From the NCBI GenBank assembly GCA_026415315.1, contig JAOAHI010000002.1:45324-109323 (forward strand): a stretch of 64,000 nucleotides of DNA, written 5' to 3'. Origin of the DNA: Methylohalobius sp. GTDB taxonomy: Bacteria; Pseudomonadota; Gammaproteobacteria; Methylococcales; Methylothermaceae. Positions 59,348-64,000 of the stretch are shown piece after piece (position 1 is the stretch's first letter; the number at the start of each line of letters is the position of its first letter). The position numbers and the translations under genes were made by a program. The notes beneath the pieces were generated by a model. That model was given only the letters and a program-made list of their open reading frames with translations. It did not search any database and was not told where the DNA came from.

Positions 59348-59359
59348 TAAGCCCTATTT

Positions 59360-60310
59360 TTAGAGCAGGACGCCGGCCACCGCGGACAGCGGCTCAGGCA
59401 GAGCGTCCCGCTCCTCAAGTTGCTGCCTAAGATCGATCTCGATGATTCGACATAAAGCTGTCATGGGCACGTCGTTGACTTTGTTTTCAAAAGGATCGCG
59501 TAGCTCTGAACCTAAGCGCTCGATGGTGACCAAAATAAAAGCCAACAGCGCCTCAGCTAGAATGGCGGCAACGTCAAAGCGCTGATCGGTCTGAATCAGA
59601 CTAAACGGAATCAAAGTGGCCACCAGCCAGACGAACAGATGGGTATGAAACCGAAAACGATCGGGAAAGGCAGTGCGTTTAATCCGCTCGCAGCCCCCCT
59701 GAACCTCATAGATTTGGTTTAGAGTCATATCGATCTGGAGCAAAATCTGTTGCTCGGCAATATCTTTTCCGATCACGCTGGCCAATCTTCTACCCTGATG
59801 TTGGAGGATTTGGGTAGGAACGTTGCGGGCCTGATGGAGGCGTTGGATCTCGTCCGGCGGCAACCAGCTAGAAAGCAGCTGCCAATCTTCCTCCGCAGGC
59901 TGGCCATGGCGCAAGCTGATGCGTAGGGCGTGAACGTATGCGATCAGGCGATAGACCAACTCCTTTTGCAACCGCCAAGCCGCCTGTTCATCGCCTAAAG
60001 AGGCGATTCTGCCAGCGGTCAGCAAGGTCGTGACCTGTCGCCCGAAAGAACGGCTTGCATTCACTAGTTGTCCCCAAAGCTGCCGCGCCTCCCACCATCT
60101 CTCGTAACATTGGTTGATCTGGAAGGCCAAAAAGATGGACAACGCCGTGATCAACACCCCCATCGGCAGAGTGGGCAAGGTGGTGGTGTGGGCCAGCGGG
60201 GTGTATTCGTATACGAACTCGACTGCAAGCGACAAAGCCAGAAAATAGACTAAAGCCGGCCAATCGCTTTTTAGGGCGCGCCAAAGGGTGGTTCCGTGAT
60301 GAACGATCAT
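59360..60310 (-). CDS. Bestrophin-family anion channel
   Basis: FLAFQINQCYERWWEARQLWG, GGCERIKRT, DPFEN..NDVP. Confidence 0.9.
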   Translation of the reverse strand: MIVHHGTTLWRALKSDWPALVYFLALSLAVEFVYEYTPLAHTTTLPTLPMGVLITALSIFLAFQINQCYERWWEARQLWGQLVNASRSFGRQVTTLLTAGRIASLGDEQAAWRLQKELVYRLIAYVHALRISLRHGQPAEEDWQLLSSWLPPDEIQRLHQARNVPTQILQHQGRRLASVIGKDIAEQQILLQIDMTLNQIYEVQGGCERIKRTAFPDRFRFHTHLFVWLVATLIPFSLIQTDQRFDVAAILAEALLAFILVTIERLGSELRDPFENKVNDVPMTALCRIIEIDLRQQLEERDALPEPLSAVAGVLL

Positions 60311-60315
60311 AGGCG

Positions 60316-61242
60316 TTATATACTGCCAGATTCGGTCGGAGAGTACAGCCTGTCTTGGGCGCGATCGAGAATGGCGTTGACCACCAGGTGAGCCTGTTTT
60401 CTTTGCTGCGCTATAGCATAAAACTGCTCGCGCACTGCCTCAATTTGACCCACTATCGACACGCCGTACTGAGCCATGATCTCCTCAGCCACGAGCGCCG
60501 GAGCGATAAATAAACCTATGCCGCTGCTACCAAAGGTTTTGAGCAAAGCGCTGTCCTCGATCTCCGCCTGTACGCGAGGCAAGATGCCTTGGGCATGAAA
60601 CCACTGTTCTAACGATCGCCTAAGCGCGGTATTGCTGGTCGGCAGCAAAAACGGCGCCCCGTTCAGGGAGGCGGGAAAGCCAGCGCGATAGCGATCGACT
60701 AAAGCTGGGGCAGCAAACACGCAAACTGCGCTTTCCCCCAAAAAATAGCTGAACGCTTTGCTTGAACTCGCCGGAGTCAGCGGGGCATCGGTTAGAATCA
60801 AATCGATCTCCCGCCATACCATCTCAGCCATTAGGCGTTCAATTGGCCCCTCGTAGCAAATGATCTGCACCGGCTCGTCTAGATGAAAAGCTGGCTCAAG
60901 AAGGCGGTAGGCTACCAGTTTAGGCAAGGCATCGGACACGCCAACTGTCAGACGCATAGCCCGTCCACTCGGACGGCCTTTTAAGGTATTGATCAACTCC
61001 TGCCCGAGCGAGAAGATCTCCTCTGCATATTGGAATACCAAACGGCCTGTCTCGGTAGGTACTAAGCGCCGCCCCTCTTTATGCAGGAGCCTTTCGCCAA
61101 GCGCCTCCTCCAGCATTGCCAATTGACTGCTGATGGTGGGCTGTGCCAAGTGGAGTTTGGAGGCGGCTGCGCTGACGCTCTGCTCACGCACTACCTGCCA
61201 AAAGTAAAAAAGGTGCTGATAATTTAAGCGTCTCTTGCTCAT
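60316..61242 (-). CDS. nhaR: NhaR-like LysR regulator
   Basis: LNYQHLFYFW, QPTISSQL, VGVSDALPK..AYRLL, EDSALLKTFG; start moved to ATG 61242. Confidence 0.85.
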   Translation of the reverse strand: MSKRRLNYQHLFYFWQVVREQSVSAAASKLHLAQPTISSQLAMLEEALGERLLHKEGRRLVPTETGRLVFQYAEEIFSLGQELINTLKGRPSGRAMRLTVGVSDALPKLVAYRLLEPAFHLDEPVQIICYEGPIERLMAEMVWREIDLILTDAPLTPASSSKAFSYFLGESAVCVFAAPALVDRYRAGFPASLNGAPFLLPTSNTALRRSLEQWFHAQGILPRVQAEIEDSALLKTFGSSGIGLFIAPALVAEEIMAQYGVSIVGQIEAVREQFYAIAQQRKQAHLVVNAILDRAQDRLYSPTESGSI

Positions 61243-61352
61243 GCCCACTTTATATTGAAATTCTCGATGTTTAAATTTTAACAATTCTATTTTACTTATA
61301 AATCGGCTTTAGCTAAGCTAAGAATCGAATTTGCACTCATGAGGGACGAACC

Positions 61353-62018
61353 ATGCAGAAGCTGATCCAAGGCATTCACCGTTTCCAAAAGGAAGTCTTC
61401 GGCTCGCAGCGTGAGTTGTTTGCTCGCCTGGCGCAAGGCCAGCATCCGGAGGTGCTGTTTATCACCTGCTCGGACTCCCGCATTGACCCCAACTTGATCA
61501 CCCAAACCCAACCGGGAGAGCTATTCATTCTGCGCAATGCGGGCAACCTCGTGCCGCCGTATGGGGCAGTGATGGGAGGAGAAGCTGCCACTATCGAGTT
61601 TGCAGTGGCCGGTCTTGGGGTAAAAGATATTATCGTTTGCGGCCATTCCCACTGCGGGGCCATGCAAGGGCTGCTTAATCCCCCCCCCACACGCGACTTT
61701 CCGGCTTTGACCCACTGGTTAACATATGCCGAACCTACCCGCCGTACCGTAGTGGAAAAATACGCGCTCGACGGTCAAGCCTTGCTCAACGTTACGATCC
61801 AGGAGAACGTTCTGATGCAGATGGAAAACCTGCGCACGCATCCAACGGTTGCAGCAGGACTTGCCCAAGGCAAGCTCAAACTGCACGGTTGGGTGTATAA
61901 GATCGAAACCGGAGAGGTGTTTGGCTATGATCCGGACGTCGGGCAATTTACGCTGTTGACGGAACAGCGGATCCCCAGGCCCATGCCTTACCCAATTTTG
62001 ACTGCCAAGACGATCTAA
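61353..62018 (+). CDS. Beta-class carbonic anhydrase
   Basis: CSDSR and HSHCG zinc ligands, RNAGN, HGWVY; no signal peptide. Confidence 0.96.
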
Positions 62019-62714
62019 GTGAGAAAATACAGCTGGCTCAGTGCCTTTTTGCTCCTGTTCTCCGCCATTGGCCAAGCGGAGACCCAGGAGGATTTTCGAC
62101 TGTGGAGCAATGTCACGGCTGTTACGAACTTAGGTCGCGTGGACGAGCGCTTGGCACGCTGGCGATTGTGGACAGAGGTGCAAAACCGTTGGCGGGATAT
62201 GGCCAAAGATGCCGATTTGGACCAACTTCTAGTTAGGCTCGGGCTGGGCTATGCGTTAACCGGGCAACTGACCGCATGGGCGGGCTATGGCTATATCCCG
62301 ACTTTTACCCCAGCCGACAAGGTCGTTAACGAACATCGGCTGTGGCAACAGCTTTTATGGGTGGAAAGCTTTGGACCTTGGCACTTTTCCAGCCGCACCC
62401 GCCTGGAGGAGCGCTTCATCGAGGGGGCAAAAGAACTACTGTGGCGCTACCGCCAATTCGTGCGCCTCTCCTACCCATTGAGTCTAGATTTACCTGTAAG
62501 CTTAGTCCTATGGGATGAGGTATTCTTCCATCTGAACTCGGCCAGCCCCGCCATTCAAAGCGGCTTCGATCAAAACCGCGCGTTTTTGGGGATAGGTTGG
62601 CAACCGGTTCCCACAACCAGGATAGAGGCAGGTTACCTCAACCAATTCCTCGACCTTCCAACCTTAGATCGGGTTAACCATATCGTATCGCTAAACCTAT
62701 TTTTCAACTTCTAG
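62019..62714 (+). CDS. Outer-membrane beta-barrel protein (DUF2490-like)
   Basis: Signal peptide, NEHRLWQQ, RTRLEERF, FDQNR, terminal Phe (LFFNF); GTG directly after the carbonic anhydrase stop. Confidence 0.8.
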   Translation: MRKYSWLSAFLLLFSAIGQAETQEDFRLWSNVTAVTNLGRVDERLARWRLWTEVQNRWRDMAKDADLDQLLVRLGLGYALTGQLTAWAGYGYIPTFTPADKVVNEHRLWQQLLWVESFGPWHFSSRTRLEERFIEGAKELLWRYRQFVRLSYPLSLDLPVSLVLWDEVFFHLNSASPAIQSGFDQNRAFLGIGWQPVPTTRIEAGYLNQFLDLPTLDRVNHIVSLNLFFNF

Positions 62715-62727
62715 GAAGAGCGTGGTC

Positions 62728-64000
62728 ATGAAAAAAACAAGCTATCTAACCGTGCGTCACTGGAAAGAGGATCTGCTCGCCTCCATCGTAGTGTTTTTAG
62801 TGGCTCTCCCCCTGTCTATGGGGATCGCCATCGCCTCCGGCGTTCCGCTCGAGAAAGCCGCCGCAGTCGGCTTATTCACTGCGGCCATCGCCGGCATAGT
62901 CAACGGCACTTTATCGGGTTGTCCGCTGCAAGTGAGCGGACCGGCCGCCGGCTTGGCCGTGATGGTAGCTTTGTTTGTCGAACGCTTCGGGTTTGACAAC
63001 CTGGGAATCATCGTCCTGCTTGCTGGACTGATTCAACTTGCCGCCGGAATGCTTCGCCTAGGACCGGTGTTTCGCGCCGTCTCGCCCGCGTTAATTCAAG
63101 GCATGCTCGCCGGAATCGGGGTCTTGATCTTTGCCGCCCAGTTTCACGTCATGGTGGACGACCTCCCCCCGGGAACCGGTAAAGAGTTCGGTGGCCTGAT
63201 TAACCTTTGGACATTGCCTAAGGCGGTCTGGAAAGGCGTCATGGAAACCGCCCACCGTCCGGCCGCACTTACCGGCCTGTTGACGATTGCAACGATCGTG
63301 CTTTGGGCAAAATGGTCGCCTGCCAAACTCAAGCTGATTCCGCCACCCTTGATCGGGGTCATTGTGGGAACAGCTTTTGCTGTTATCTTAAGTCTTCCCG
63401 CCAAAACGGTGCCGGTTCCAGAGAACTTGCTCAGCGCCATCGATTGGCTGCATCCTTTGGATTTTCACTTACTGGGTCAGGCAGGTATTTGGTGGGCAGC
63501 TGTCTCGCTGGCGTTTGTGGCCAGCGCCGAATCCCTGCTAACCGCCACCGCCGTGGACGCGATGCAAAATCGCACGCCGCGCACACGCTACAGCCAGGAA
63601 CTGTTTGCCCAAGGCGTAGGCAACACAGTGGCGGGCATCTTGGGGTTAATGCCCATGACCGGAGTGATTGTGCGCTCCACGGCCAACGTTATGGCCGGGG
63701 CTTACACGAGGCTGTCGGCGATCTTGCACGGGGTGTGGATTTTGGTGTTCGTAGCGCTCTTGCCGGACATCTTGCGCTTGATCCCCGTGGCCAGCTTGGC
63801 AGCAGTGCTGGTTTACACCGGCTTTAAGTTGATGAACCCTAAGGTCATACGCGAATTGTGGCAGACCGACCGCTCCGAAGCTGGCGTTTATACAGCTACC
63901 CTGGTCTCCGTGGTGGCCATAGACCTGCTCACCGGTATCGTGATCGGGATTGTGTTAGCCTTGGTCAAGCTGCTATGGAGCATTTCCCGCTTGGAGATCG
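62728..64000 (+). CDS. SulP/SLC26-family anion transporter, 5' part (absent from ORF track, runs off window end)
   Basis: Manual translation MKKTSYLTVRHWKEDLLASIVVFLVALPLSMGIAIASG...QVSGPAAGL...ELFAQGVGN...GVIVRSTAN. Confidence 0.93.
   Translation, partial: MKKTSYLTVRHWKEDLLASIVVFLVALPLSMGIAIASGVPLEKAAAVGLFTAAIAGIVNGTLSGCPLQVSGPAAGLAVMVALFVERFGFDNLGIIVLLAGLIQLAAGMLRLGPVFRAVSPALIQGMLAGIGVLIFAAQFHVMVDDLPPGTGKEFGGLINLWTLPKAVWKGVMETAHRPAALTGLLTIATIVLWAKWSPAKLKLIPPPLIGVIVGTAFAVILSLPAKTVPVPENLLSAIDWLHPLDFHLLGQAGIWWAAVSLAFVASAESLLTATAVDAMQNRTPRTRYSQELFAQGVGNTVAGILGLMPMTGVIVRSTANVMAGAYTRLSAILHGVWILVFVALLPDILRLIPVASLAAVLVYTGFKLMNPKVIRELWQTDRSEAGVYTATLVSVVAIDLLTGIVIGIVLALVKLLWSISRLEI

Follow-up and report, generated by a model that had tools for sequence, protein, structure and literature searches.

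A carbonic anhydrase-DUF2490-SulP operon divergent from an NhaR-like regulator in Methylohalobius: a candidate trans-envelope module for bicarbonate handling

Introduction

Studies of how bacteria take up inorganic carbon deal with carbonic anhydrases and with transporters of the inner membrane; on the passage through the outer membrane we know of hardly any. Whether this step can be encoded together with the others is the question raised by a locus at one end of a 64-kb stretch of a Methylohalobius sp. contig (C45:45324-109323, referred to as the window). Here, genes for a carbonic anhydrase (CA), a DUF2490 outer-membrane beta-barrel and a SulP/SLC26 transporter follow one another on one strand, and genes for an NhaR-like LysR regulator and a bestrophin-family channel lie divergently on the other. 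The original prediction, made from the sequence itself, saw in this locus a complete trans-envelope path for inorganic carbon. We find that CA, DUF2490 and SulP very probably constitute a real and functionally linked module, and we cautiously favour its reading as a LysR-controlled operon that handles bicarbonate/CO2 across the envelope. Of the predicted path, the co-directional unit and its conserved linkage hold up, whereas the bestrophin, the autotrophic role and a SulP of the BicA type do not. The pairing of CA with SulP is already known; the new part is DUF2490.

The module is conserved outside the genus

The closest relatives of the window DUF2490 protein, drawn from a collection of 5.8 billion proteins, are 52-69% identical to it and are encoded in LysR<>CA-DUF2490-SulP modules (loci L102, L104, L105 and L106) that have the same gene order as the window and near-zero gaps. 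Their CA, SulP and LysR proteins are, respectively, 76-79%, 67-74% and about 60% identical to those of the window. Scanning metagenome contigs with the window SulP retrieved 80 loci, 70 of them non-redundant, with 48-73% identity. Sixty-three loci extend far enough to show what precedes SulP, and in 51 of them it is a co-directional, immediately adjacent CA orthologue (63-80% identical); an NhaR-like LysR is divergent from the module in 22/53. A co-directional DUF2490 gene no more than 1.2 kb from SulP is present in 12 of the 70 loci, in three gene orders, namely, CA-DUF-SulP (5 loci), CA-SulP-DUF (4) and CA-SulP-Usp-DUF (3), where Usp stands for universal stress protein. The linkage of DUF2490 to CA and SulP, the lack of which the original prediction had named as grounds for giving it up, is thus conserved both in L102, L104, L105 and L106 and in reshuffled loci, and the NhaR-like regulator, whose co-occurrence it had proposed to check, travels with the module.

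Neighbouring genes give a hint at the substrate. Phosphoenolpyruvate (PEP) carboxylase is encoded beside CA-SulP in three loci (L122, L124 and L192), and the alpha subunit of a biotin-dependent carboxylase in eight, five of which come from one lineage. Since both enzymes use bicarbonate, these neighbours point to bicarbonate as the likely substrate. In the eight loci (L137, L139-L142, L164, L180 and L183) the adjoining gene codes for a biotin carboxylase/BCCP protein with a PCC_BT domain. The genes immediately downstream of SulP are tandem Usp genes in 11/70 loci.

The bestrophin, which had been included in the predicted pathway, does not belong to what is conserved. Its gene does not adjoin the orthologous modules L102, L104, L105 and L110, and besides the window's own genome it was seen in one other lineage only (L116-L118), about 0.85 kb downstream of SulP; we therefore reject it as a core member.

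Two further loci are related to the module. The locus L110 (G017:C1:1708000-1722000) has an orthologous LysR<>CA-x-SulP arrangement (CA 79%, SulP 68% and LysR 58% identical), x being the gene in the DUF2490 slot, and a gene for a P-type cation ATPase after LysR; such a gene also comes after SulP-DUF2490 in G029. The locus L103 (6814-9108) encodes a DUF2490 protein 66% identical to that of the window and no SulP. Upstream there is only a CA remnant (residues 5-66, 42% identical) and a polyphosphate kinase gene, and a gene for a CitMHS/ArsB-type anion transporter is convergent. L103 gives the impression of a module that has decayed or been rewired.

Layout of the locus

Genes were identified using a six-frame list of open reading frames (ORFs) together with Pfam and NCBIfam profile searches, and all five predicted genes were recovered in their places (Table 1). 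The predicted spacings agree as well: the TAA stop codon of CA abuts the GTG of DUF2490 (0 bp), a 13-bp gap that includes the ribosome-binding site GGAAGAG precedes the ATG of SulP, and the divergent spacer is AT-rich and of the length foreseen. SulP may start at GTG 62722 or at ATG 62728, and the LysR ORF has an alternative upstream start, TTG at 61284. Reading past position 64000, as had been advised, completes SulP at 535 amino acids (aa), with its end at window-equivalent position 64329 (C45:109652). The gene beyond SulP is convergent and there is none downstream on the SulP strand, so the operon consists of three genes. On the opposite strand, 5 bp separate the LysR stop from the bestrophin start, and the two genes are probably co-transcribed.

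Table 1. Features of the locus, in window coordinates
Feature	Position	Strand	Basis
Bestrophin-family channel gene, 316 aa	59360-60310	-	PF25539 Bestrophin_2, 204.2 bits (cut-off 27), E 4e-60
NhaR-like LysR gene, 308 aa from ATG 61242	60316-61242	-	HTH_1 and LysR_substrate; NF008284
Divergent control region, 110 bp, 67% A+T	61243-61352	.	Spacer when LysR starts at ATG 61242
Beta-carbonic anhydrase gene, 221 aa, operon gene 1	61353-62018	+	Pro_CA (PF00484), 163.7 bits, E 5e-48
DUF2490 outer-membrane beta-barrel gene, 231 aa	62019-62714	+	PF10677, 181.1 bits (cut-off 29.8), E 2e-53
SulP/SLC26 transporter gene, residues 1-426 of 535 in the window	62722-64000	+	PF00916 Sulfate_transp, 201 bits; STAS_2

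DUF2490 is repeatedly linked to anion transporters

To see how far the linkage extends, we counted it in 31 genomes, comprising the window's own, 13 congeners and 17 other genomes of the same order. Of 31 DUF2490 matches, 11 are no farther than 10 kb from a SulP match, where the number of SulP copies and the size of the genomes would lead one to expect about 2%; once a genus-wide locus is collapsed to a single event, the count is 6/26. In a maximum-likelihood tree of 126 DUF2490 proteins the label 'SulP-adjacent', which undercounts linkage because of short flanks, changes 12 times, and at least 10 of these changes are forced by supported branches. Moreover, in 10-11 sphingomonad loci (L010-L014, L017-L020, L023 and L030) DUF2490 is located directly behind a gene for a Chr-family transporter on the same strand, so that DUF2490 is paired with anion transporters of two unrelated families, SulP and Chr.

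Within the same order, SulP-DUF2490 pairs without CA are found in G019, G029 and G030, the last having a DUF2490<>SulP-Proton_antipo_M arrangement. As an independent architecture, G021 carries a LysR<>CA-SulP-Porin_O_P-DUF2490 operon (L111, G021:C15:21000-32000), in which SulP is BicA-like (536 bits) and LysR is not NhaR-like; two different outer-membrane barrels, Porin_O_P and DUF2490, thus share one inorganic-carbon operon.

A family-wide census of neighbours in 80 species-level DUF2490 loci sets the bounds of the link. Two of the 80 are SulP-adjacent and one has a nearby CA of the window type, and we reject the notion that every DUF2490 gene is concerned with inorganic carbon. Other neighbours include histidine kinases, one DabA, one LCIB-type CA and a PepSY-like gene. 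Because the remaining family has such heterogeneous neighbours, the link is strong in some clades and not universal. The LCIB/LCIC-type CA (PF18599, E 5e-78) lies within two genes of a DUF2490, in one of the loci L002-L040. In 18 loci of Bacteroidota, a gene of about 165 aa with a sub-threshold PepSY-like match (20.7 vs 28.3 bits) is positioned immediately upstream of a distant DUF2490; this PepSY-like/DUF2490 pairing (L047, L051, L054, L057-L063 and L070-L080) is conserved but has no obvious link to inorganic carbon.

Carbonic anhydrase and SulP

The first gene of the operon encodes a member of the beta class of CAs, according to a profile score far above the PF00484 cut-off (163.7 vs 25.7 bits) and the presence of the zinc ligands and catalytic dyad. 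The zinc-site motifs CSDSR (C39-S-D41-S-R43) and HSHC (H98-S-H-C101) are intact, and the closest solved relative is PDB 5swc (E 1e-70). No hydrophobic segment or signal sequence was found at the N-terminus, in keeping with the original prediction. Judging by its sequence, the CA is a cytoplasmic beta-class enzyme.

The full 535-aa SulP is a member of the SulP/SLC26 family by its matches to PF00916 (201 bits) and to PF13466, STAS_2 (32.2 bits, cut-off 29.2). Its scores are below the cut-offs of the NCBIfam models for BicA (NF050096, 112.1/880 bits), DauA (174/614) and the generic sulP (TIGR00815, 168/380). BicA (PDB 6ki1; NF050096) is a cyanobacterial bicarbonate transporter of the SulP type that depends on Na+. 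The window SulP shares with it the Pfam family and the combination of Sulfate_transp membrane domain and STAS, but it is not an orthologue and lacks the context of a carbon-concentrating mechanism; with a score so far short of the NF050096 cut-off, it is ruled out as a BicA equivalog. The SulP of G021, also partnered by DUF2490, is far closer to BicA.

Transporters of the SulP and Chr families are active on bicarbonate (PMC10880623), and CA-SulP microsynteny and gene fusions have been proposed to act in bicarbonate transport, the CA-linked SulP clade being viewed as bicarbonate transporters mostly on bioinformatic grounds (PMC6458275). In the SulP-CA pairs and fusions of Felce and Saier (2004), in so far as they are cited in PMC6458275, a cytoplasmic beta-CA adjoins SulP, as it does here. 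The can2-sulP cluster of Acidithiobacillus ferrooxidans likewise has CA beside a SulP permease in conserved microsynteny; can2 transcript levels drop as CO2 increases, and for the CA-SulP pair a role in bicarbonate uptake or export and in pH homeostasis has been proposed (PMC6458275). The window operon differs from the known pairs in several respects: a DUF2490 outer-membrane barrel is inserted, the partner regulator is an NhaR-like LysR, and the host is devoid of RuBisCO. In addition, the CA-linked SulP clade is described as having no STAS domain (PMC6458275), whereas the window SulP retains it.

The DUF2490 barrel

DUF2490 (PF10677; TC 1.B.81) is a family of more than 4,000 members. The window protein belongs to it by its profile match, signal-like segment, barrel model and C-terminal aromatic residue: the N-terminus, MRKYSWLSAFLLLFSAIGQA, resembles a signal peptide and the sequence ends in LFFNF, with a terminal Phe. 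The AlphaFold2 model, computed from an alignment of 65 sequences, has a pLDDT of 94.2, a pTM of 0.83 and 11 long strands (DSSP) with short turns. Foldseek searches with this model returned outer-membrane barrels only, at TM-scores of about 0.4-0.5, including Vibrio cholerae OmpT, NanC (2wjq and 2wjr), PcoB, OmpG and Omp32 (2fgq and 1e54). The fold search retrieved no close solved homologue, so that the matches define the fold class only.

Strand faces were assigned by hydrophobic parity, and the lumen face is that predicted on this basis. All 15 strand Arg residues fall on this presumed lumen face, together with 6 acidic residues, and none faces the lipid, so that the strand residues give the lumen a net charge of about +9. 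Nearly all invariant residues are lumen-facing (R57, R73, E105, R107, R126, R128, E130, R132, R143, R145, E167, R187 and E203); their conservation is family-wide and not peculiar to SulP-linked members. The Arg-rich lumen of the model fits an anion-selective lumen, and also a salt-bridged closed core.

KdgM and NanC are 12-stranded monomeric channels for acidic solutes, and Omp32 and OprP/OprO are anion-selective porins. The window barrel is similar to them in being a small outer-membrane barrel of comparable size with basic residues lining the lumen, but its TM-scores to NanC and Omp32 are just 0.38-0.51 with 9-13% identity, and it has 11 long strands by DSSP. It cannot be counted as a KdgM/NanC member, as DUF2490 is its sole Pfam match and 2wjq/2wjr are matched at TM-scores of 0.44-0.51 and 11-13% identity. 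The window protein clearly belongs to DUF2490 (181 bits to PF10677), which TCDB carries as 1.B.81, a family of putative porins whose function has yet to be established (PMC4827864). The literature assigns the family no function, and among the publications searched, those mentioning DUF2490 make no link to inorganic carbon, CA-SulP or Chr transporters; the links to CA-SulP and Chr come from the present analysis.

Regulator and control region

The LysR protein scores 228.3 bits with the NhaR equivalog model NF008284, which passes the cut-off of 219 bits narrowly, by 9 bits; the next-best model reaches 85 bits. Its orthologues, 58-66% identical, are divergent from CA in L102, L104, L105, L106 and L110, and on the same model those of L102, L104 and L110 score 222.4, 214.5 and 245.4 bits, so the L104 protein is under the cut-off. 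Escherichia coli NhaR is a Na+-responsive LysR activator of nhaA. The window regulator is like it in that no other regulator model comes close to the NhaR score, although this is just over the equivalog cut-off, and unlike it in that the operon conserved in divergent position to its gene is CA-SulP and a search of the 98%-complete genome for an NhaA-family gene (PF06965) gave no match. Accordingly, a classical nhaA regulon is rejected for this regulator, and the CA-DUF2490-SulP operon is its sole conserved candidate target. Possible sensing of Na+ or pH, which the predicted control would require, is something we infer on the sole basis of the borderline score of a hidden Markov model. Our search for literature connecting NhaR with CA-SulP, or bacterial bestrophins with CA operons, found nothing relevant.

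The LysR-CA spacers of the window's own genome, L102, L104, L105, L106 and L110 were aligned. The alignment contains a conserved block, ATTCTATTTT, at 61284-61293. The aligned spacers also have in common a dyad of the T-N11-A type, a candidate regulator site, which in the window is the imperfect ATATTG-N7-CGATGT at 61252-61270; at the aligned place L110 has the perfect dyad ATATCG-N7-CGATAT and L106 has AATCG-N7-CGATT. In a scan of the locus for promoters and terminators, the counts were not above those for shuffled sequence.

Genomic context

Neither DUF2490 nor SulP of the window has an orthologue in the 13 congeners, where the best matches (42% and 37% identical, respectively) belong to a paralogous locus. 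Vertical conservation of the module within the genus is thereby rejected. Synteny with four congeners (G001, G002, G006 and G008) extends over tyrS, anmK, erpA and a UDG-like gene and breaks at window positions 59348-59360, right after the UDG-like gene and where the block with the module begins. The block absent at this site in the four congeners comprises the genes from bestrophin to SulP, followed by a ceramidase-like membrane gene (whose assembled sequence includes an N), a radical SAM gene and a YbaK-like gene, and continues toward the contig end with a type I restriction-modification system containing a Fic-domain gene (L001). From bestrophin to restriction-modification, the block looks like a variable island. 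Because same-genus genomes are without it at this site, it was probably acquired horizontally by this species or, alternatively, lost elsewhere. The same-genus genomes keep the other SulP paralogue.

Searches of the genome found no RuBisCO (PF00016), PEP carboxylase, DabA or Sbp sulfate-binding protein; present are a second, divergent beta-CA, two biotin carboxylases and CysD/CysH-like genes. The original prediction had called for a check for RuBisCO or PEP carboxylase. With neither of them nor DabA in the genome, an autotrophic CO2-concentrating role is rejected; carboxysome shell genes were not searched.

The genome has another locus combining these families (L109, C34:136000-152000), in which genes for another SulP (643 aa) and another DUF2490 protein (248 aa) stand on either side of a cluster encoding two Proton_antipo_M proteins, a fused 30kDa/49kDa/NiFe-hydrogenase-like subunit and a NuoB-like subunit. 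In its gene content, the cluster resembles a membrane-bound hydrogenase or complex-I-related module. Next come genes for a histidine kinase and a sigma-54 response regulator; DabA is absent, and the 8-kb SulP-DUF2490 spacing recurs in five congeners.

Proposed mechanism and alternatives

In the mechanism that we favour, SulP would carry bicarbonate through the inner membrane, either by itself or in exchange for a different anion, CA would equilibrate bicarbonate with CO2 on the cytoplasmic side, DUF2490 would provide a positively lined anion path through the outer membrane, and LysR would activate the operon from the spacer dyad. The likely purpose would be the supply of bicarbonate to biotin carboxylases and other carboxylations at scarce CO2, or the buffering of cytoplasmic pH, rather than a carbon-concentrating mechanism, because the host lacks RuBisCO and PEP carboxylase.

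A number of observations weigh against this mechanism. SulP is remote from every characterised SulP (best solved structure 5da0, 90 bits; BicA 6ki1, 74 bits) and could be a sulfate importer, given the CysD/CysH-like genes of a genome in which no Sbp was found. The direction of transport is uncertain, because a cytoplasmic CA beside a bicarbonate importer would leak CO2. As for DUF2490, 58 of the 70 loci of the SulP clade do without it, an unrelated 322-aa GT_PLOD-like gene occupies its slot in the G017 module (L110), and most DUF2490 genes across 80 species have unrelated neighbours. Since G021 carries Porin_O_P besides DUF2490, the latter may not be the channel there, and the barrel may even be closed, because its charge network is reported to be buried in AlphaFold models (preprint 10.64898/2026.07.29.741452).

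Such a closed, salt-bridged barrel, comparable to OmpA/OmpX, could have a structural, docking or sensing role and be merely co-regulated with a CA-SulP pair that works without it. This would agree with the buried charge network, with the co-occurrence of a true anion porin gene in G021, with the absence of DUF2490 from most CA-SulP loci, and with the heterogeneous neighbours (including histidine kinases and PepSY-like genes) and family-wide lumen conservation of DUF2490. It is harder to reconcile with the repeated independent linkage to inner-membrane anion transporters, which involves at least 10 label changes and two unrelated families. The orientation of all strand Arg residues toward the presumed lumen, with its net positive charge as in anion-selective barrels, and the closest folds, among them NanC, a 12-stranded channel for acidic sugars, and Omp32, which is anion-selective, also speak for a channel. 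We regard the closed barrel as a serious but doubtful alternative; that the modelled DUF2490 barrel is an open anion channel has, in our estimate, about an even chance.

The other alternatives concern what the module carries and in which direction. If the module worked in reverse under alkaline or Na+ stress, CA would hydrate CO2, SulP would expel the bicarbonate by means of the membrane potential and DUF2490 would serve as the exit; the net effect would be to keep protons in the cytoplasm, with the NhaR-type regulator inducing the operon under this stress. An NhaR-like regulator in a genome without an NhaA-family gene would make sense in such a setting, but the NhaR assignment is just 9 bits over the cut-off, with the L104 orthologue below it. 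A cytoplasmic CA suits export better than import, and the P-type cation ATPases beside related modules (G017 and G029), the tandem Usp genes directly after SulP and the lack of RuBisCO and PEP carboxylase are also in line with export, while the PEP carboxylase and biotin carboxylase neighbours fit the supply of bicarbonate and not its disposal. On the whole, we deem reverse operation rather unlikely. The main substrate of SulP might instead be sulfate or another oxyanion, transported alone or exchanged for CA-supplied bicarbonate by analogy with animal SLC26 exchangers, which work together with carbonic anhydrase, with DUF2490 as a general outer-membrane channel for small oxyanions. The near-obligate CA partner (51/63) and the carboxylase neighbours, however, point to inorganic carbon, as does the view of the CA-linked SulP clade as bicarbonate transporters, mostly bioinformatic in its grounds (PMC6458275). 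Furthermore, because the congeners lack the window SulP (best match 37% identical) and keep the paralogue, the window protein appears to be an accessory gene and not the housekeeping sulfate importer. What lends this alternative some weight is the location of DUF2490 directly behind transporters of the chromate/sulfate family Chr and, in L103, beside one of the CitMHS/ArsB type, the CysD/CysH-like genes in a genome where Sbp was not found, and the scores of SulP with the DauA and generic sulP models, which are about as high as any. Taken together, we judge it improbable.

The favoured reading of a LysR-controlled bicarbonate/CO2 module could be widened to one in which DUF2490 proteins are dedicated outer-membrane channels for bicarbonate or comparable small oxyanions, recruited on many occasions by the unrelated SulP and Chr transporters, the module is a trans-envelope pathway for inorganic carbon or pH control in a host without RuBisCO, the regulon of the NhaR-type protein has shifted from Na+/H+ antiport to the handling of bicarbonate and the bestrophin is a second, co-regulated ion leak. 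As a whole, this wider reading is tentative, and we do not expect all of it to be true.

Implications

The divergent pairing with the CA-SulP operon in a genome devoid of an NhaA-family gene suggests that regulators automatically annotated as NhaR may control another regulon in many genomes. For the DUF2490 family, repeated independent recruitment to CA-SulP, along with the pairing with Chr, offers a concrete hypothesis, namely, that its members may serve as anion-selective conduits of the outer membrane. Finally, the presence of the module in a host with neither RuBisCO nor PEP carboxylase bears on the question of why heterotrophs keep bicarbonate toolkits, for which carboxylase supply or pH homeostasis may be the reason.

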